Of a stretch of DNA of 64,000 bases, positions 37,198 through 47,828 are shown in pieces. The notes beneath the pieces were generated by a model. That model saw only the letters and a program-made list of their open reading frames with translations. It made no database searches and had not been told where the DNA came from. The position numbers were made by a program, and so were the translations under genes. Positions within the stretch are counted from its first letter, which is position 1; the number at the start of each line of letters is the position of its first letter. The stretch is from Escherichia coli (GTDB lineage Bacteria > Pseudomonadota > Gammaproteobacteria > Enterobacterales > Enterobacteriaceae), in assembly GCF_041248615.1 (NCBI RefSeq), contig NZ_CP158426.1. One strand, 5' to 3'.

Positions 37198-37273
37198 TCC
37201 TCTGTAGTTCAGTCGGTAGAACGGCGGACTGTTAATCCGTATGTCACTGGTTCGAGTCCAGTCAGAGGAGCCA
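37198..37273 (+). tRNA. asnW: tRNA-Asn (GUU); integration target of downstream island
   Basis: 76-nt sequence identical to asnU/asnV on plus strand. Confidence 0.95.
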
Positions 37274-37434
37274 AATTCAAGTTTTCATGCTTATCTGTAC
37301 GTCTCTATTTGTTTACGATTCAGTAAGTTAGCGTGAAAATCCTTCCCGGTGCGTATCTGGTTTTCTCTCTGTATCGGGATAATTTGGTGGTCAGATCTGG
37401 GGTCAGTTTGGTTCGATTCTGGAGTGACCCCCAA

Positions 37435-38696
37435 ATGTCTTTAAACGATTCTAAAATCCGCAAGTTAAAACCCTCTTCCCGTCTGGTAAAACTCTCCGAC
37501 TCTCACGGTCTGTATCTGCTCGTCAATCCGGGCGGTTCACGCATCTGGTATCTCAAATATCGTTTCAACGGAAAAGAATCCAGAGTCAGTCTTGGCGCAT
37601 ACCCGCTTGTCTCACTGGCAGAAGCCAGGCAACAGCGCGACGGTATCCGTAAGTTACTGGCGCAGAATATCAACCCGGCGCAGCAGCGCATGGCGGAGAA
37701 AGCGGCCTGCTCCCCTGAAAAGTGCTTTAAGGCAGTGGCGCTGGCCTGGCACAAAACCAACAAAAAATGGTCGGCTGATTATGCCGCCCGTATTCTCGCC
37801 AGTATGGAAAACCATATCTTCCCGGCGATTGGTCATCTGCCAGTTGCCACTCTTAAAACGCAGGATTTACTGCTTTGTTGCGGGTTATCGAGGATAAAGG
37901 CTTTCTGGAAGTCGCGTCCCGAACCCGGCAGCAACTCAGCAACATCATGTGCTATGCCGTTCAGCAGGGGCTTACCGAAAGCAATCCGGCGCAGCATCTG
38001 GATGGCGTTGTCGCCTCACCCGTAAAGAATCACTACCCCGCGTTACTGCTGGAGCGGTTGCCCGAACTGCTTGGCCGCATCGGTGACTATCAGCAGGGCC
38101 GGGAGTTAACACGGCTGGCGGTGGTGCTGACGTTGCACCTGTTTATCCGTTCCAGCGAACTGCGTTTCGCCCGCTGGAGCGAGATCGATTTCAGGCACAA
38201 AATCTGGACCATCCCCGCCACCCGCGAGGCAATCGACAAAGTACGGTTTTCGGGGCGTGGCGCAAAAATACGTACCCCGCATATCGTGCCGCTCTCCCGC
38301 CAGGCGATTGCCATTCTGAAACAGATACAGGAGCTTTCCGGCCATCTGGATCTGGTGTTTCCCGGTGATCATAACCCGTACAAGCCAATGAGTGAAAACA
38401 CCACCAACCGGGCGCTACGCCTGATGGGGTATGATACGAAAACTGAAATCTGCGGGCATGGACTCAGGGCGATGGCCTGTAGCGCCCTGGTGGAGTCGGA
38501 GCTGTGGTCACGCGATACGGTGGAGCGGCAAATGAGCCACCAGGAGCGTAACAGCGTGCGGGCAGCCTATGTGCATAAAGCGGAGCATCTGGAGGCCAGA
38601 AAGGCCATGATGCAGTGGTGGTCGGATTATCTGGATGTGTGCCGCGAGGGGTATGTTGCGCCGTACATTTATGCCCGGCAGCATAAGGCAGCCTGA
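37435..38696 (+). pseudogene. P4-type tyrosine integrase, interrupted by a frameshift near 37870
   Basis: N-terminus MSLNDSKIRKLKPSSRLVKLSDSHGLYLLVNPGGSRIWYLKYRFNGKESRVSLGAYP typical of P4-family integrases; reading frame changes between ORF 37333-38025 and ORF 37875-38696. Confidence 0.8.
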
Positions 38697-38849
38697 ATCA
38701 GAAATAACGGAAATCATTAAAAATGTAAAAGCAGATCCTGATTGACCGGGATCTGCTTATTGTATTGAGAAGTATTACCATTTTTCTGTTATTATCAATC
38801 GGAAAGTATCTAAAAATATTTGGCCCCAAATAATTTTGGTGAAAACCAA

Positions 38850-39270
38850 TCAATAAACCATTTATCAATAGGTAAGTACCGGAAATTATTCCAGTAGAAT
38901 ATTTTCAGGCGATTGCCTATTAATAAATACATTATTGATAGATAAGTGCCTTCTGTGATTTGTCCGCAAATCACAGAAGATGAAAACCTATCAATACGGG
39001 ATATTTTCACGGAAATACCAATTAATACTCCAGAATATCTCCTGACCATATACTCTGAAACCTGTAAGAACTGCATCAGATATTGAGAGACCATATAGAT
39101 ATAAGTCTGAAATTATTTTGTTTCCAATGATTTCAGGCGAAAACCTATCAATGCATCTGTTTTCAATAGGCAGCCACCTTCCGTGATTAACATGTTAATC
39201 ACGGAAGGTGAAAAGCTATCAATAATCGATATTTTCACGGAATTACCACTTAATACATCCCAAAAAATGC
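38850..39270. repeat. AT-rich array of ~110-bp imperfect direct repeat units, each containing a GTGATT-type palindrome
   Basis: Palindromes cttctgtgattt-gtccgc-aaatcacagaag (38950-38979) and ccttccgtgattaac-at-gttaatcacggaagg (39177-39208) with compensatory arm changes; flanking tatcaata and gatattttcacgg motifs repeated. Confidence 0.65.
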
Positions 39271-39852
39271 GCCATAAAATACCGGGCAATCTTTCCTGAT
39301 ACACATTATCACTGCACCAGCTATACAGAGACAAAATAATCTGCACCAGCCCCTGTAAATCGGTTATTTGTGCCAGTGTCCCGCCGCTCTACCTGTTCAG
39401 GGTTGTGCCAGTTTCTGGCCCTTTGGTTTTCGGCCCTTTCCGGTCAGGCGCTGTTACCCTTATTGCCCCTTAACCTTTATGACCCTTTCCCTTTCTGACG
39501 CAACCAGTTTATTTTGAAATGCTCCATGACAGTCTGCACCAGACTGTATTTTCACCACAGGATAACGATCACAAAGTGCAAAAAAATAACATGAAGCACC
39601 GAAGATTGTTAATCTATATGTAGCAGGTAATGATGTCAAAAACTGTCGCAGCATTTTTTATAAAATTATGAGACATTCTGTGGGCATATAATATATGTCA
39701 CAAGATGCAGGAAAACAAAGAGAGAGTTTTCAGATATAATCCCGCGTTAGAATTAATGTGATGCCCCGGTGAATTTACATTTTAAAATTTCCCTGTCCCG
39801 TAATATCGGTAAAAACGATTGAAACACCAACTATTAATCGGGAACGTCTCGA

Positions 39853-39871
39853 GTGATTACAGGGTAATCAC
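39853..39871. repeat. third GTGATTA palindrome
   Basis: gtgattac-agg-gtaatcac; same half-site as the two palindromes at 38950 and 39177. Confidence 0.55.
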
Positions 39872-40033
39872 TATAATATCCCGGCAAACTATATTGGTTA
39901 AGCAGGAGAATCTGATCAGTTGATATTTATTCGTCATGCTGTAACGATATTTTCACAATATAAACCCGTTCGCCCCCTGCGCCAGATCCGGTACAGAGGG
40001 TACGATAAATCGCTGTCGTTACGCAGTAACGTA

Positions 40034-40650
40034 CTATTTTGCGACATTCATGAATTCAGTCATTCCTCCCTCCAGCGGTAGCCGTACACCTGTTTCACCC
40101 AGCGACCGCGACCGTCGCCATGACCCAGATCCGTCGCCGTCAGCGCCAGTGACTCCTTTTCGCTGAATCCCTGCGCCAGTATCCAGGACTGTCGTATAAC
40201 GGGGACGCCCGCCTTTGGTGCCAAATACCACTTTTAGCCGGGTTTCACCGCGGGAAATGGCTTTCAGCCACGTTTTCAGCGACTGTGAACTCTGTACCGC
40301 CTCCTGCGAACGCAGCCCCATCAGCCGCGCAATCTCCAGGCTGCTGCCAGCCCTGCGTCCTGAGTACGGGCTTTCTCCATCACCTGCCTGCGTCCAGCCT
40401 GTCTCAGCACGGCCCGCAACGCTGCCATTTCGTTTTGCAACGTTCGTAAACCAATATCCAGCTCCAGCCGTTCCTCAATGTAGCATTCGATATGGCGAAC
40501 CTTGATCTGCTCCACCCGCTGGATCTGGATATTCAGCGCCCGTAAATGTTCACTGAACCGTTTTGTAATATGGATACGGTCATTCACCGTTTTGAAGCTG
40601 CCGCCCGCTTTCTTCGCCAGCGCCTTCATTTCACTGCTTAATTTACTCAT
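40034..40650 (-). pseudogene. tyrosine recombinase-like remnant (frameshifted, truncated)
   Basis: ORF 40321-40650 resembles integrase N-terminal SAM-like core-binding domain; adjacent ORF 40034-40321 in another frame carries a GTKGGRPR segment; total too short for an intact recombinase. Confidence 0.4.
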
Positions 40651-41416
40651 GAATCCCTCTGCAACAAAAACAAACAGTCTCCGGCGTGTGCTTTTTGGCT
40701 GCGCCAGAACGATACCTTTACGCCGGAGTGGTAGTTTGTTGAGGTTTAGGGAGTTTCAGGCTGTACGCAGTACAGACTGCCTGCGAAGCAGGAGTGTCTC
40801 CGGGGCTTCTTGCCCCCCTCGGTATCGATCTTTTTCTCCTTTACTCTTAGCTGACAGCGGCCCCAAAGGGCATGTCAGACGGCGGAAATATGGCGCAGGC
40901 CAGAACTGGCGCGGCTTGTGGCGGTGAGTTGTGCGGCGTCACTTTGCTTTTTCGCTGGCGCGACCAAAGTGACGCCTCGTCTGGTGCAGGGGGTAAACGT
41001 TACGTTTCTGGTGCAGGGTGACGGTCACGCGGCAGCAAAGCCTGACGGCAATGCAGGCCGCAGCCCGTCAATGTAAGGCGCTGGTTGTCAGCAGAAGATA
41101 AAACCCGGCAAAGCCAGAGTGTCAGCCCGTAAAGCCGGGTATCTGGTGCAGTGATGGTGTATATGTACGTCAGTCTCAGATGCAGGTATTTTTGCATCCC
41201 CGGCGTTTTCAGAGATCAACGCCGGTAAAGGATGCCATGCTGGCGAAGCCAGGCGCTTCTTTCAGACGTGAAGCGACAAAGGGACTGCCCGGAGGCAGTT
41301 TGTTGCAGGCGGGAGACTGCGCCATTATTTCTGGTGCAGGAAGGAAAAACTGTTTCCGGGTTTAAAAGATTGTTTGCTTACCTGGTGACGGAAAAACTGC
41401 CGCGCTTCGCTTGTCT

Positions 41417-41460
41417 TCTCCCGGCGCGCTGCCAGCAAAAGCAGGCAGCGCGCCGGGAGA
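41417..41460. repeat. perfect 17-bp inverted repeat with 10-nt spacer
   Basis: tctcccggcgcgctgcc-agcaaaagca-ggcagcgcgccgggaga. Confidence 0.7.
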
Positions 41461-41566
41461 GTCTGGTTTTACTGTAACAATGCGCCTGACGGTTCAGCCA
41501 TCAGGATCGGCGTTTATGCATGAGTCTTCCGGTACGGTTGCCCCGATCATCGATGTATCTGGACGG

Positions 41567-41755
41567 TCAGATAATTTCCGGTGATGTTTCCAGCGCATCC
41601 GCAATCAGTTTTTCGCCGCGCGGCCTGGAGCGGGTCAGCGCATTTGCCAGCGTGGAAGACGCCAGCCCGGCCCTGCGGGAAACCTCAGCCAGCGATGTTC
41701 CCTTTTTTCTCAGGCCCGCGATAATATCGGCGGGGTGCCAGTCGGGTTGCATCAT
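41567..41755 (-). CDS. Ner/Nlp-like HTH DNA-binding protein (short form)
   Basis: 62-aa ORF with DWHPADIIAGLRKKGTSLAEVSRRAGLASSTLANAL, close to the Ner/Nlp (SfsB) signature. Confidence 0.7.
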   Translation of the reverse strand: MMQPDWHPADIIAGLRKKGTSLAEVSRRAGLASSTLANALTRSRPRGEKLIADALETSPEII

Positions 41756-42213
41756 GCTGGCCTCCCGTCGATAACCTGTATGCCGTCAGCAGTACATATC
41801 CAGCGTGGGGCGTTCAGATTGGCGGCAAAATACCAGACCAGTTCGCACAGCAGCCCGGTCAGCGTGGTTTCGGTTTCCGGCAGCAGCACGTGGCCGTTCA
41901 GTATCTGCGTCAGCGCCAGGCAGTAATCGCAGAGTGATCCTGCATCAGGCTCAAAACCGGGTGAAACATCGGGAAGATCATTCGTAATAAACCCGTCAAT
42001 CAGATGTGGTGGGATCGGCTCGTTCAGCGTGGGCCGCAACAGTGCAAGACAGGTATTAAGCCTGCCACAGAGCGCCGTTTTCAGCGCCGGATCGCAGCAC
42101 TCGATGAGCGTTGTGGCAACGCGATCGCAGTACTCCGCCAGATCGGTGAAATCGGTAGCGGCACTAAAGGGAACAGCAAGTAAATTGCATTCAGAGGTGA
42201 GAGTAGTCGCCAT
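41752..42213 (-). CDS. hypothetical Cys-rich protein (153 aa), translationally coupled to Ner-like gene
   Basis: ORF overlaps downstream Ner-like start by 4 nt (ATGA); 9 Cys; no recognisable family. Confidence 0.45.
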   Translation of the reverse strand: MATTLTSECNLLAVPFSAATDFTDLAEYCDRVATTLIECCDPALKTALCGRLNTCLALLRPTLNEPIPPHLIDGFITNDLPDVSPGFEPDAGSLCDYCLALTQILNGHVLLPETETTLTGLLCELVWYFAANLNAPRWICTADGIQVIDGRPA

Positions 42214-42734
42214 AAGGCCGTCTACAGTGAGTGATAAATATTCCAGCCACTGGAGAGGCTAATCTCACGGGTGGTGGAACCGGACGGGGTTAGCCTTACC
42301 AGCCTCACTGACACTGGCGCGTCTTTCGACGCCCCCGCCCGATCCCGCCATTGAGATGAGACCGTGCGCGACACACAAATATTGTATCGTCAGTGAGGAT
42401 CTTCAGGAGGCTAATCCCGACGCCTGATTTTGCAGGCGCGGCGCAACAATACAATGTTCGGTAATTTTCAGCAAGAGGTTTAGCGGAAGCAGACGCACAG
42501 GAAAATACAATCACGCGATAAATATTAAATACAATTATATTTATATAAAATATATATTGAGCAATATGCAGACACTTTCCAGTAAATATCCTGTCAGTTA
42601 ATTCGTCCCGTTGATATCAGTCAAAAAAATAAATGTAAAAAGAGCGTATTTCGTTTCATACAGTAACGTTATTTATCATTTTGTCCGGTGTCGCCAGCAT
42701 CAGGCCAGATGAACCATAAAAAAGGATATCAGCG

Positions 42735-45700
42735 ATGAGCGGAAAACCGGCAGCACGTCAGGGCGATGCCACAATGAAAGGTGGCCCGATAGTCCAGGGG
42801 TCGGCAGGCGTGAGGATTGGCGCGCCAACCGGCGTGGCCTGTTCAGTGTGCCCCGGCGGATTCACTTCCGGTAACCCGGTGAATCCGCTGCTCGGTGCAA
42901 AAGTACAGCCCGGCGAAACCGATTTCGCGCTGCCCGGCCCGTTACCGTTCGTGCTCTCCCGCACCTACAGCAGCTACCGGACGAAAACCCCTGCGCCCGT
43001 CGGTATCTTCGGTCCTGGCTGGAAAGCACCCTTTGATATCCGCTTACAGATACGCGATAACGAACTGATACTCAATGATAACGGTGGCAGAAGCATTCAT
43101 TTTGAGCACCTGTTTCCCGGTGAGGATGGCTTCAGCCGCAGCGAATTATTCTGGCTGGTGCGCGGCGGCGTGGCGAAACTGAATGAAAGTCACCGTCTTG
43201 CCCCACTCTGGCAGGCTCTGCCGGAAGAACTCCGCATGAGTCCGCATATTTATCTGGCGACGAACAGTCCGCAGGGGCCGTGGTGGATACTCGGCTGGAG
43301 TGAGCGGGTACCGGGTGTGGATGAGGTGCTGCCTGCGCCATTGCCGCCGTACCGGGTGCTGACCGGCCTGGTGGACCGCTTCGGGCGTACCCTGACCTTC
43401 CGGCGTGAGGCAGTTGGCGAATTTACCGGGGAAATCACCGGCGTGACCGATGGCGCAGGCCGTCAGTTCCGCCTGGTGCTGACCACGCAGGCGCAGCGGG
43501 CGGAAGAGGCCCAGCAGCAGGCGGTTGCAGCCGGAGCAAAACGACCAGATATCCCGGTTTCATTGCCGGACTATACAGAATATGGCCGGGATAACGGCAT
43601 CCGCCTGTCAGCGGTGTGGCTGACGCATGACCCGGAATACCCGGAGAATTTACCTGCCGCGCCACTGGTGCGCTACGACTGGACGCCACGCGGTGAACTG
43701 GCGGCGGTGTATGACCGCAGCGGTACGCAGATGCGCCACTTTACTTACGATGATAAATACCGGGGCCGGATGGTGGCGCACCGTTACGCAGGCAGGCCGG
43801 AGATGCGTTACCGCTACGACGACATCGGGCGCGTGACGGAACAACGTAATCCGGCGGGTTTAAGCTACACCTATCAGTATGAGAAAAACCGCATCATCAT
43901 CACCGACAGCCTGAACCGGTGCGAGGTGCTGCATACAGAAGGCGAAGCCGGGCTGAAACGGGTGGTGAAAAAAGAGCACGCTGACGACAGCGTCACACAG
44001 AGTCAGTTCGATTCCATTGGCCGCCTTCAGTCACAGACGGATGCGGCAGGCCGGACGACAGAATACAGTCCGAATGTGGTGACGGGTCTCGTCACACGCA
44101 TCACCACGCCGGACGGCAGGAAATCGGAATTTTACTATAACAACCAGAACCAGTTAACCTCAGCATCCGGGCCTGACGGACTGGAAATGCGCAGGAAATA
44201 TGATGAGTACGGGCGTCTGACGCAGGAAACCGCTCGCAACGGCGATATCACCCGCTACAGTTATGATAATCCGCACAGTGAATTACCCTCTGCAACTGAA
44301 GATGCGACGGGTAGCCGCAAGCAGATGACGTGGAGCCGTTACGGGCAGTTACTGACTTTCACCGACTGCTCAGGCTACCAGACCCGTTATGAATACGACC
44401 GCTTTGGTCAGATGACGGCGGTCCACCGTGAGGAAGGTGTCAGTCTTTACCGCAGCTATGACAGCCGTGGTCAGTTAATCTCGGTGAAAGATACGCAGGG
44501 CCGTGAAACGCAGTATGAGTACAACGGTGCAGGCGACCTGACCGCCATTATCACGCCAGACGACAACAGAAGCGAGACACAGTACGATGCGTGGGGAAAG
44601 GCCGTCAGTACCACGCAGGGCGGGCTGACGCGCAGCATGGAATACGACGTTGCCGGACGTGTCATCAGCCTGACCAACGAGAACGGCTGTCACAGCGACT
44701 TCAGTTACGATGTGCTCGACCGCCTGATACAGCAGAGCGGCTTTGACGGGCGGACGCAACGTTACCGTTACGACCTGACCGGGAAACTCACGCAGAACGA
44801 GGATGAGGGGCTTGTCACCCTCTGGCACTACGACGAATCGGACCGTATCACACACCGCACGGTGAACGGCGAACCGGCAGAGCAGTGGCGGTATAACGCC
44901 CACGGCTGGCTGAAAGAAATCAGCCACCTGAGCGAAGGTCACCGGGTGGCGGTGCATTACGGCTATAACCGTAAGGGACGTCTCACCGGCGAGCGCCAGA
45001 CGGTGCATAACCCGGAGACGGGGGAACTGCTCTGGCTGCATGAGACAAAACACGCCTACAACGAACAGGGTCTGGCAAACCGCGTCACGCCGGACTGCCT
45101 GCCTGCTGTGGAGTGGCTGACCTACGGCAGCGGTTACCTGGCGGGGATGAAGCTGGGCGACACGCCGCTGCTGGAGTACGCGCGCGACCGCCTGCACAGA
45201 GAAACGGTGCGCAGCTTTGGCAGCATGGCAGGCAGTAATGCCGCATACGAACTGACCAGCACATACACCCCCGCAGGCCAGTTACAGAGCCAGCACCTGA
45301 ACAGCCTGGTGTATGACCGTGACTATGGGTGGAATGACAACGGCGACCTGGTGCGCATCAGCGGCCCGCGACAGACGCGGGAATACGGCTACAGCGCCAC
45401 GGGCAGGCTGGCGAGTGTGCGCACCCTCGCACCGGACCTGGACATCCGCATCCCGTATGCCACGGACCCGGCGGGCAACCGGCTGCCGGACCCGGAGCTG
45501 CACCCGGACAGTACACTCACAGTGTGGCCGGATAACCGCATCGCGGAGGATGCGCACTATGTCTACCGCCACGATGAATACGGCAGGCTGACGGAGAAGA
45601 CGGACCGCATCCCGGCGGGTGTGATACGGACGGACGACGAGCGGACCCACCACTACCACTACGACAGCCAGCACCGCCTGGTGTTCTACACGCGGATACA

Positions 45701-46916
45701 GCATGGAGAGCCACTGGTCGAGAGCCGCTACCTCTACGACCCGCTGGGACGGCGAATGGCGAAAAGGGTATGGCGGCGGGAGCGTGACCTGACGGGGTGG
45801 ATGTCGCTGTCGCGTAAACCGGAGGAGACATGGTACGGGTGGGACGGCGACAGGCTGACGACGGTGCAGACTGACACCACGCGTATCCAGACGGTGTACC
45901 AGCCGGGAAGCTTCACGCCGCTCATCAGAATCGAAACAGACGTGACCGAACTGGAGAAAGCGCAGCGGCGAAGCCTGGCGGAGAAGTTACAGCAGGAAGG
46001 GAGTAAAGATGGTCACGGCGTGGTGTTCCCGCCTGAACTGGTGCGGCTGCTGGACAGGCTGGAGGGGGAAATCCGGGCAGACCGTGTGAGTGACGAAAGC
46101 CGGGCGTGGCTTGCGCAGTGCGGGCTGACGGTGGAGCGGCTGGCGGCACAGATCGAGCCAGTTTATTTGCCTGAGCGAAAAATACATCTTTATCACTGCG
46201 ACCACCGGGGACTGCCGCTGGCGCTTATCAGTACTGAAGGTGCAACGGAATGGCGTGGGGAGTATGACGAGTGGGGGAATCAGCTTAATGAGGAGAACCC
46301 GCATCATCTGTTCCAGCCATACCGCCTGCCGGGGCAGCAGTACGATGATGAATCGGGGCTGTGCTATAATCGTTATCGTTACTACGAGCCGTTACAAGGG
46401 AGGTATATTACACAGGACCCGATTGGGTTAAATGGGGGGTGGAATTTATATAAATATCCGCTGAATCCAATAAATTATGCAGATCCTCTTGGCTTAGCCG
46501 TAGATATAAACCACTTCCCAGTCAACGAAGACATACGAAATTATGCAGAGAAAGTTTGGAATAATCCTAATATCATTACAATTGGAACACATGGTGATCC
46601 TCAATCAGTATATGATGAAAATTATAATAAGATAGATGTCAAGACATTAGCTAATGAGGTTCGAAATCATCCTAAATTTAAACCTGGAATGTCAGTAAGA
46701 CTGTTATCCTGTAATACAGGAAAAGGAAATAACTCTTTTGCACAGCAATTGGCAGATGAACTAGGTGTGAGAGTCTATGCTCCTGACCAATATGACTGGT
46801 ACTATTCAAATGGTAAGGTAGAGCCTTGGGGAGGATTCTATGATGCAAACAATCAATTGCAAATGGACACGAATCAGCCTGGACATGAGTTTACATTCAA
46901 GCGAAGGAAACCATAG
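42735..46916 (+). CDS. rhs: Rhs-family polymorphic toxin (PAAR-like N-terminus, YD-repeat core, divergent C-terminal domain)
   Basis: 1393-aa ORF; N-terminus [11 protein letters not shown]...[26 protein letters not shown] like E. coli RhsA-C; many YDxxGR repeats; DPIGL...DPLGL core/toxin boundary motif. Confidence 0.9.
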
Positions 46917-46918
46917 GT

Positions 46919-47521
46919 ATGAGGTATTTTCTCTTTATATTTATAACAATCCCCCTTATCTCTGGAGGTCATATGAGTAATGATAGCGAAAAGATAATAT
47001 CAACATATTCGCTCAATTTTTTATCACCAGATGATGTGAGGAAAGAAGAACTTAAGGCATCACAAGGTGATAGTGATGCTGCATTTAAATTGTACAAATA
47101 TTACCTTTTTTGCGAGCCAAAATCATACAGAAAACAGCACGAATGGTTAATAATATCGGCAAATAATGGAAATGCTATAGCTCAATATAACTTATCAAGA
47201 GAACTTGAGTCAGAAGGAAAAGTAGATGAATCAATACAATGGCTGAAAAAATCAGCGGAACATGGTAATAATTATGCACAATATCAGATGTCAAAATATT
47301 TATTAAAAATAGGTGATATTAGAGGATCGGAATATTATCTAAACTTATCTGCGGATAACGGATGTGTATTTGCAATAAAAGATATTATCAAAAATATGAT
47401 GGATAGTGGAAGGTACGATGACGCCCTCATTTGGGTTGAAAAATTGAAAAAATTGTATCCTGACACAAATACCGAACTTTACATACAAAAAATAACGCAG
47501 AAAAAAAAGCAATCCAAATAA
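46919..47521 (+). CDS. putative Rhs immunity protein (Sel1-like repeat protein)
   Basis: ORF starts 3 nt after rhs stop; low GC like the rhs C-terminal region; Sel1-like repeats; stronger SD (ggagg) precedes internal ATG at 46970, so true start may be there. Confidence 0.6.
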   Translation: MRYFLFIFITIPLISGGHMSNDSEKIISTYSLNFLSPDDVRKEELKASQGDSDAAFKLYKYYLFCEPKSYRKQHEWLIISANNGNAIAQYNLSRELESEGKVDESIQWLKKSAEHGNNYAQYQMSKYLLKIGDIRGSEYYLNLSADNGCVFAIKDIIKNMMDSGRYDDALIWVEKLKKLYPDTNTELYIQKITQKKKQSK

Positions 47522-47808
47522 TAATTATATATAATTACTCGCACAGAGTTACAGTATTGCAAGAAATATATCTAGCATATAAAGTCGCCGCCAGTAAAGA
47601 TAAAGTACTGTGTAATCCTTCCTCCCATATAGGGGTAAAAACTTAGCATCCAGTGCCCTCGACTTAATTTTTAGTATTTTCTCTGTGAAGTGACACTTCG
47701 TAGGATTCAGTTCATGTTTACCAGAAAAAAGGTGGTCATTCTGGTGGTCTTGACAATCTCGATTTTTTGTTTTAGCTTTCCAATCAGCCAATTAATGGCT
47801 ACGGCGAT

Positions 47809-47828
47809 CCCAGTCAGAGGAGCCAAAT
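47809..47828 (+). repeat. island-distal direct repeat (attR-type copy of asnW 3' end)
   Basis: ccagtcagaggagccaaatt identical to tRNA 3' end at 37258-37277. Confidence 0.8.

Follow-up and report, generated by a model that had tools for sequence, protein, structure and literature searches.

What is the function of the segment spanning positions 40650-41566 of the 64,000-nucleotide stretch of Escherichia coli DNA analysed here (contig NZ_CP158426.1 of assembly GCF_041248615.1; hereafter, the window), in which palindromes and short repeats accumulate? An earlier description of the region, made from the letters only (the sequence-only reading), had regarded it as a GC-rich stretch with no credible open reading frame (ORF), and had compared it to the RNA-based immunity and replication control regions of P4-like elements. 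We found that the segment is the intergenic region located upstream, on the minus strand, of a broken gene encoding a relaxase-like protein of the MOB_M type, which comprises the PF12834 and PF12835 domains. The segment makes up the non-coding core of a module, and this module travels together with PF12835 genes. From the parallel between its layout and that of the mobilization region of SGI1 (Salmonella genomic island 1), we propose that the segment is most likely the cis-acting core of a mobilization module, i.e., an origin of transfer (oriT) plus a mobilization RNA, which persists here as a remnant.

The non-coding nature of the segment claimed by the sequence-only reading is borne out by several results. 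The longest ORF lying within 40651-41566 has at most 81 amino acids; a Pfam scan of the seven longest six-frame ORFs of the segment returned zero matches; and no continuous gene emerges, which was one of the refuting outcomes named together with the claim. In the RefSeq annotation, which we read from the identical sequence in E. coli NRZ14408, the sole ORF of the segment corresponds to a 52-aa hypothetical protein. The segment is moderately GC-rich (55.6% vs 49.3% for the whole window), and when its folding was compared with that of shuffled sequences, the z-scores were −10.5 for the minus strand and −4.2 for the plus strand. The palindromes and repeats that had been noticed are real, with coordinates to be corrected by 1-3 bp, and they are kept in related islands. 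Similarly, the suggestion of a structured RNA or an iteron-like control region was right in kind, since the segment harbors an EFASI RNA, a STAXI-like unit, two conserved hairpins and a phased, iteron-like 9-mer, all of which are described below.

The gene adjacent to the segment (40060-40650, minus strand) is an MpsA-like, MOB_M-type pseudogene, which is annotated as frameshifted in RefSeq. Of the 293 residues of the intact protein, it retains 1-108, 137-193 and 256-293, split into three pieces that occupy two reading frames, and it is devoid of residues 194-255, i.e., about 60 amino acids of the catalytic domain. Its N-terminal ORF matches the Pfam family PF12834 with 140 bits. The homolog from the related locus L004, once repaired across its frameshift, matches both PF12834 (143 bits) and PF12835 ("Integrase_1", 202 bits), and these two domains also occur in the precomputed annotation of the intact homologs (290-293 aa), which are common elsewhere. 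The PF12835 protein has a tyrosine-recombinase fold, with a recognisable tyrosine-recombinase C-terminal box. It is worth noting that PF12835 is the signature (INT_DTR_like) by which one classification scheme identifies MpsA, the atypical tyrosine-recombinase-type relaxase of SGI1 (PMC10484663). According to a recent preprint (bioRxiv 10.64898/2026.01.13.699239), no relaxases are more common on the chromosomes of E. coli, Salmonella and other species than those of the MOB_M type (the commonest in its six focal species); they stand almost always beside an integrase, and their candidate oriTs are placed in the first large intergenic region that lies upstream. The same organization is found in intact, widespread Salmonella islands, in which an HTH_35 gene is followed by about 940 nt of non-coding sequence, then by the PF12834+PF12835 gene and, at the island end, by a P4-type integrase.

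A search with a profile of the family yielded 960 clusters at 50% identity. Relatives with 25-50% identity occur on plasmids typed as non-mobilisable by MOB-suite. One of them, the Vibrio plasmid pSIO1 (NC_006860.1; 4.9 kb, four genes; MOB-suite: non-mobilisable), carries a family member beside a T4 coupling protein, and a Pantoea plasmid with another relative is typed MPF_G, with no recognised relaxase. As regards the distribution of intact and broken copies, all four E. coli copies that we inspected (the window and the related loci L002, L003 and L004) are annotated as frameshifted pseudogenes, and Salmonella, Citrobacter and E. albertii commonly carry intact ones; a recurrent decay of the module in E. 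coli is thereby suggested.

Between the hairpins of the segment and the pseudogene lies an EFASI RNA (Rfam RF02957; 40706-40833, minus strand), which matches the model over its entire length (positions 1-133 of 133) with 100.8 bits, for a gathering threshold of 51.2, and ends 56 nt ahead of the PF12834/PF12835 pseudogene. In a scan of species-representative genomes, the Rfam EFASI model was found in 13 of the 13 loci sampled. Using a hidden Markov model (HMM) built from the Rfam hits, we detected exactly one EFASI copy in 79 of the 83 sequences of our set, which comprises the window and related loci; the RNA is always carried by the strand of the gene and it ends approximately 50-110 nt ahead of the start codon. 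Among the four sequences without a copy, three are loci that lack upstream DNA. EFASI is also present beyond the Enterobacteriaceae proper, namely in Photorhabdus, Xenorhabdus, Rahnella, Pectobacterium and Zophobihabitans. The Rfam text places EFASI upstream of integrase genes and downstream of STAXI, and regards it as an RNA of unknown function that likely acts in trans as a small RNA (PMC12370729). The window copy, which scores about twice the gathering value, fits this description, with an integrase-like gene downstream of it and a STAXI-like element upstream; with respect to the Rfam entry, EFASI appears here as an obligate neighbor of PF12835 genes.

The STAXI-like unit (41244-41313, minus strand) lies further upstream, some 420-480 nt from EFASI. 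It consists of a hairpin, CTGCC-TCCG-GGCAG (41285-41298), followed by CTGAAAGAAGCGCCTG (41250-41265). Recognised by its pattern and its synteny, it is present in about 30 loci, where its UNCG-loop hairpin covaries. The Rfam STAXI model (RF01728; threshold 40.5 bits) yielded no match in the window at E≤10, and the window holds a single unit vs the two or three tandem pseudoknot units of RF01728. At the syntenic place of homologous loci, 550-900 nt upstream of the gene, the same model scored above gathering in L066 (77.7 bits), L062 (45.6 bits), L006 (44.8 bits) and L026 (42.0 bits), and it reached 33.7 bits in L004. STAXI has been noted near XerC/D-like integrases and C4 RNAs, and it is suspected to act as single-stranded DNA. 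In Rahnella and Lonsdalea, the slot of STAXI is filled by the radC RNA motif (RF01754), which suggests that the STAXI and radC motifs are alternative fillings of one functional position. The radC motif was located at 4315-4457 in L057 and at 4351-4491 in L045, and in the latter locus a retron msr RNA follows the relaxase gene at a distance of about 340 nt.

Two hairpins, which we named IR-A and IR-B (for inverted repeats), are conserved in different manners. IR-B (40935-40976, minus strand), written GGCGTCACTTTG...CAAAGTGACGCC, has perfect 12-bp arms at 40935-40946 and 40965-40976, slightly shifted from the interval of about 40934-40973 given previously, and it combines an invariant arm core with a variable inner stem. 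The hairpin, as GGCGTCACTTT...AAAGTGACGCC, occurs in 71 of the 83 sequences, approximately 320-370 nt ahead of the gene start, including those from Photorhabdus, Xenorhabdus, Rahnella and Zophobihabitans. Moreover, a GCGTCAC..GTGACGC hairpin is present in five of six plasmid-borne relatives (25-50% protein identity), for a chance expectation that we estimated ourselves at about 0.003 per locus. These five plasmids are pSIO1, three Burkholderiaceae plasmids and the Pantoea MPF_G plasmid, in which the hairpin is located 269-562 nt upstream of the gene; it is absent from a Paenibacillus plasmid. Because IR-B is family-wide, we regard it as the best candidate for the site that the relaxase-like protein would recognise. 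On pSIO1, the GCATGGCGTCACTGG/CCAGTGACGCCATGC hairpin stands 562 nt upstream of the PF12834 gene, and this plasmid also carries a PAGEV RNA (122 bits).

IR-A (41417-41460, minus strand) is the palindrome previously reported with 17-bp arms. Its arms, 41417-41436 and 41441-41460, are in fact 20 nt long and 95% complementary, with 17 perfect pairs, and they are separated by a 4-nt loop. We collected 29 distinct variants of it across genera. The three basal pairs, CTC/GAG, are kept, and every other stem position shows two to four types of Watson-Crick pairs. At stem positions 4-18, the Watson-Crick pairing amounts to 66-100% (79-100% with G.T pairs included). The G.T wobbles are distributed 29:6 in favor of the gene-sense strand, these counts not being phylogenetically independent. 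This wobble bias and the folding asymmetry mentioned above suggest that the functional single strand, be it RNA or transferred DNA, runs in the same direction as the gene. Directly 3' of IR-A on the gene-sense strand stands an invariant box, AGACAAGCGAAGCGCGGCAG (41397-41416, minus strand), the consensus of which, RRGACAAGCGWAGCGCGKCAG, extends from Escherichia to Photorhabdus and Rahnella, although in these two genera the identity of the relaxase is only about 54-57%. IR-A is frequent and not universal.

The third component of the segment is a 9-mer repeat. The sequence-only reading had counted four CTGGTGCAG copies, and the four are indeed present on the plus strand, at 40981, 41008, 41143 and 41331; the 28-bp spacing attributed to two of them turned out to be 27 nt, start to start. 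These copies, taken as the 9-mer TCTGGTGCAG (span 40981-41339), are antisense to the relaxase gene. It had been overlooked that other copies, in the opposite orientation, occur outside this array, at 39312, 39341, 39534 and 39977 and at 40699. The first four constitute a second, inverted array, downstream of the pseudogene (39312-39985, minus strand), and the fifth one is a sense-oriented CTGGCGCAG (40699-40707, minus strand) that overlaps the 3' end of EFASI and is conserved, at about −60, in the window-type subfamily. The whole 64-kb window contains seven exact CTGGTGCAG copies, vs 0.46 expected, a number reached by none of 100 shuffled sequences. In the 72 loci that we scanned for the orientation of the 9-mers, 115 antisense copies vs 21 sense ones were found upstream of the gene, and 79 sense vs 6 antisense ones downstream of it. 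The copies being antisense upstream and sense downstream, EFASI and the gene are enclosed between two inverted arrays of the 9-mer.

The repeat is phased with IR-B, as the offsets of TCTGGYGCAG relative to this hairpin are fixed (−42, −15, +52 and +70), and its flanks are not conserved, except for a T (never a C) at −1. The full arrays are limited to loci encoding a protein at least about 67% identical, and a related clade has one or two copies of CTGGCGCA around IR-B. The complementarity between the unpaired 3' segment of EFASI and the 9-mers is only partial, and it varies among clades. Other readings of the 9-mer were considered and rejected. As arm-type sites of the integrase, the arrays would be 2-4 kb away from the att core, in an island with no internal att copy; as for sigma-54 promoters, Chi sites and CRP-like sites, none fits when compared by eye with the consensus sequences.

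Two of the 9-mers belong, together with ACGGGCTGCGGCCTGCATTGCCG..GCTTTGCTGCCGCGTGACCG, to a block (40966-41094, minus strand) that is the most widely conserved DNA of the segment within E. coli. Many E. coli islands that are otherwise unrelated, among them type VI secretion system (T6SS), dnd and ABC-three-component islands, share it with about 84% identity, and it is non-coding, because the loci differ from one another by 1-2-nt indels. The block was also observed on more than 100 large conjugative Salmonella plasmids, with about 83% identity (e.g., NZ_CP016411.1, S. Infantis pESI-like megaplasmids); on the one that we examined, its neighbors are a PemK toxin and a cluster comprising TerB-N, an ATPase and a DEAD-helicase. 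Another match deposited as a plasmid, CP075030.1, carries yeeO and amn, and it looks like a chromosomal segment.

Together, the minus strand reads, in that order, IR-A and its 20-nt box, the STAXI-type unit, the block with the phased TCTGGYGCAG repeats around IR-B, EFASI and the relaxase-like gene. This anatomy, its conservation, the covariation of its hairpins and its coupling to the gene family were directly observed. The layout of SGI1 is as follows: a GC-rich, 125-bp oriT with inverted repeats stands upstream of mpsA, and an essential RNA, sgm-sRNA, is encoded between oriT and mpsA; this small RNA is cut from a primary transcript of 650-700 nt, the promoter of which is followed, close to the 5' end of the transcript, by an inverted repeat that is GC-rich and terminator-like (PMC6414798, PMC9299015). 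Our module resembles the SGI1 module (oriT_SGI1, sgm-sRNA and mpsA/mpsB; Kiss 2019, Nagy 2021) in having a protein of tyrosine-recombinase fold read as a relaxase; a GC-rich inverted-repeat region upstream of its gene, with a structured RNA encoded in between; a long non-coding stretch (approximately 0.7-0.9 kb) with a GC-rich inverted repeat at the far end; and a small island where the relaxase gene is next to a separate integrase. The two modules also differ. The IR1 of SGI1, as deduced from the oriTfor primer, is CGCGCAC..GTGCGCG, vs GCGTCAC..GTGACGC here; SGI1 has a separate mpsB, whereas an N-terminal SAM-like domain is fused to the protein studied here; no 9-mer arrays are described in SGI1; and the function, established experimentally for SGI1, is a proposed one for the family of the window.

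By analogy with SGI1, we infer an oriT activity, a requirement for the RNA and a binding of the 9-mers, which could operate as follows. The relaxase-like protein would recognise the conserved hairpin(s) as the origin of transfer, the 9-mers would organise a nucleoprotein complex around the transfer site, and a long minus-strand transcript would be processed to the structured RNA (EFASI), itself required by the transfer reaction or its control. Two other comparisons can be made. The segment fits the positional definition of the MOB_M oriT regions ("oriT_rM") in the preprint "Genomic Islands as minimal hitchers of conjugative elements" (2026), which defines these regions by clustering only and does not describe the RNA motifs, hairpins and repeats. 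Like the classical oriTs (e.g., RP4, R388 and RSF1010), in which an inverted repeat adjoins a conserved nick region, IR-A and its box constitute a variable hairpin with a conserved flank; on the strand favored by the wobbles, the hairpin is on the 5' side of the box. Unlike the enzymes of these oriTs, the enzyme of the window family is not an HUH relaxase, and the polarity and chemistry of the reaction may differ. As a speculation, a tyrosine-recombinase-like attachment to a 3'-phosphate could entail a transfer polarity different from that of the HUH relaxases.

Several points weigh against the oriT-plus-RNA proposal. To our knowledge, neither nicking nor mobilisation of DNA has been observed experimentally for any member of the enterobacterial subfamily. 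In the window, the relaxase and the integrase are both encoded by pseudogenes, so that its copy is probably not mobile by itself and its DNA sites would be usable at most in trans. IR-A and the box are absent at several loci where the gene is intact and both EFASI and IR-B are present. There are two different hairpins as candidates for the nick site. A consensus scan of 40300-42700 found no sigma-70-like promoter. Finally, an nhmmer comparison of EFASI with the sgm region of SGI1, in a noisy reconstruction from primers, detected no sequence similarity, and the parallel between EFASI and sgm-sRNA is therefore positional, not a demonstrated homology. As regards other traces of SGI1, the arms of its knock-out primers (PMC9299015 supplement; noisy optical character recognition) have no match in E. 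coli genomes, the 21-mers confirmed by two primers have none in the metagenome and viral collections, and MpsA, with an N-terminus guessed from a primer, does not appear in the 150 top-ranking representatives of the family profile. An 11-mer, GCGAAGCGCGT, is common to the SGI1 deloriTfor primer and to some variants of the invariant box, with only 10 nt of it present in the window copy, and its orientation relative to the relaxase gene is opposite.

The same features could be explained in other ways. If the segment were only a long, structured 5' leader or regulatory RNA controlling the PF12835 gene, with no role of its DNA as a transfer origin, one would understand why EFASI ends some 56 nt ahead of the start codon on the same strand, why the sense strand folds unusually well and is favored by the wobble pairs, and why UNCG loops, which favor an RNA, occur in the STAXI unit; the region is, moreover, downstream of a C4 antisense RNA switch. 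We nevertheless consider this explanation rather unlikely, in view of the arm core of IR-B, which remains invariant over a range that includes E. coli, Vibrio and Burkholderia and in which the protein falls to 26-36% identity, as better suits a site recognised by a protein, and of the inverted 9-mer array found also downstream of the gene. In addition, oriTs are normally located at exactly such a position, and the two roles are not exclusive, since RNA and oriT overlap in SGI1. A true site-specific recombinase acting on the hairpins and repeats as recombination sites (for resolution, inversion or attC-like capture of cargo) is another idea that agrees with the fold and the C-terminal box of the protein, with the inverted arrays of one motif flanking the gene, with the arrest of the similarity between islands at IR-A on the upstream side, and with the conserved structure and variable sequence of IR-A, which are reminiscent of attC. 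It appears improbable to us, as each island has one IR-A and one IR-B, hence no partner site, and hairpin loops of 3-5 nt instead of a 6-8-bp crossover spacer. Furthermore, a separate P4-type integrase serves the integration of each island, and pSIO1 pairs the PF12835-family protein with a coupling protein.

The likeness to P4 immunity and origin regions, which the sequence-only reading had suggested, did not hold. An iteron-type replication origin or a P4-like immunity/ori region is a very improbable explanation, largely refuted, in spite of a short motif repeated at least four times with an irregular spacing of 18-190 nt, of the replication of SGI1-type elements after their excision, and of the C4-type RNA nearby, which lies outside the segment. 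The region is without similarity to P4 or to any real phage genome (the sole match of a blastn search against 50,697 phage records was an unannotated, mislabelled 3.1-kb Salmonella fragment), and neither a rep nor a primase gene occurs in the island. The length of the motif is 9-10 bp, vs 17-22 bp for tandem iterons, and its presence and placement track IR-B and the integrase-like (MOB_M-type) PF12835 gene, not a replication gene; there is also no AT-rich unwinding element, the GC content being 49-63% across the segment. As for a decayed protein-coding gene, the RefSeq 52-aa hypothetical ORF (WP_000301065.1; 40918-41076, plus strand) could have been its trace, as it overlaps IR-B and contains two 9-mers in frame, which encode LVQG twice. 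This frame is not conserved, and WP_000301065.1 is probably a spurious gene call. Given that no ORF matches Pfam, that indels of 1-2 nt distinguish the homologous loci inside the conserved block, that the spacings of the 9-mers (27-35 nt) are not multiples of three, and that the conservation tracks the hairpins and the Rfam RNA, the coding explanation is refuted for practical purposes.

Returning to the oriT-plus-RNA proposal, we tentatively envisage a wider possibility, in which EFASI, STAXI, radC and the GCGTCAC...GTGACGC hairpin might form one conserved RNA/DNA apparatus of the MOB_M relaxases across Proteobacteria. EFASI might then be the functional counterpart of sgm-sRNA, i.e., an RNA cofactor and not a classical regulator; the hairpins might be recognised on the gene-sense single strand; and the inverted 9-mer arrays might assemble the relaxosome. 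EFASI and STAXI were already known as orphan motifs, and the MOB_M relaxases and their upstream "oriT regions" had been described (2019-2026). In the literature that we searched, where two papers mention "EFASI" and one of these is about the RNA, the link of EFASI, STAXI and radC to MOB_M modules is apparently unreported; the same holds for the GCGTCAC hairpin kept throughout the family, for the covarying hairpin and the invariant box beside it, and for the phased, inverted 9-mer arrays. The window copy, a dead remnant, has little importance alone, and its anatomy matters when set against the approximately 90 related loci. Two precise candidate oriT sites can be named, the family-wide GCGTCAC hairpin and the covarying hairpin with the invariant box. 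As many small defence, toxin and virulence islands carry the module, it bears on the movement of such islands. If the shared apparatus were true, it would provide a function for three long-standing orphan Rfam motifs and define the oriT architecture of the MOB_M relaxase family.

The island that hosts the segment (37198-47825, 10.6 kb) is small, decayed and integrated at tRNA-Asn, and it is most likely an integrative mobilizable element. It extends from tRNA-Asn (37198-37273), the last of the three tRNA-Asn genes of the window (32965, 35374 and 37198), to CCAGTCAGAGGAGCCA (47810-47825), a 16-bp direct repeat of the 3' end of the tRNA, and the chromosomal setting of the window is between yeeO and yeeN. 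The island comprises, in order, a frameshifted P4-type integrase (37435-38696), an AT-rich spacer, the PF12834 pseudogene (minus strand), the segment, an HTH_35 gene, a 153-aa ORF, a C4 RNA and its targets, and an Rhs gene (plus strand). The HTH_35 gene (Ner/SfsB-like; 41567-41755, minus strand) is directly upstream of the segment, and this order is the same in the intact Salmonella islands. The C4 antisense RNA (42267-42355, minus strand; 62.2 bits) lies about 700 bp outside the segment, and its isrK-like targets a1 and b1 (42377-42452, minus strand) score just below the threshold (43.8 and 45.5 bits). This P1/P4-style set of RNA and targets heads a minus-strand string that continues with orf153, HTH_35, the non-coding region and the relaxase gene; C4 and isrK are also found upstream of the module in the related loci L006, L021, L026, L037 and L042. 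The cargo consists of the Rhs toxin gene (42735-46916, plus strand), encoding a 1393-aa Rhs core protein, and of a gene for a 200-aa tetratricopeptide-repeat (TPR) protein (46919-47521). No type IV secretion system gene was found in the window or in the Salmonella islands with the module.

Two further elements were observed on the other side of the pseudogene. On the minus strand, at 39429-39506, an A/G-rich block with repeated AAGGG (GGGTCATAAAGGTTAAGGGGCAATAAGGGTAACA...GGAAAGGGCCGAAAACCAAAGGGCC) is kept in most related loci, usually within a few hundred nucleotides downstream of the relaxase gene and, in many loci, directly after the gene end; it could be a 3'-UTR (untranslated region) element or a terminator region. 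The AT-rich spacer (38700-39300; 38% GC), located between the integrase and the downstream 9-mer array, contains two related palindromes (38922-39007 and about 39175-39210; CACCTTCCGTGATTAACATGTTAATCACGGAAGGTG), each with a preceding ATTGATAG.TTTTCA, and parts of this spacer are conserved beside the 3' end of the integrase gene in other loci.

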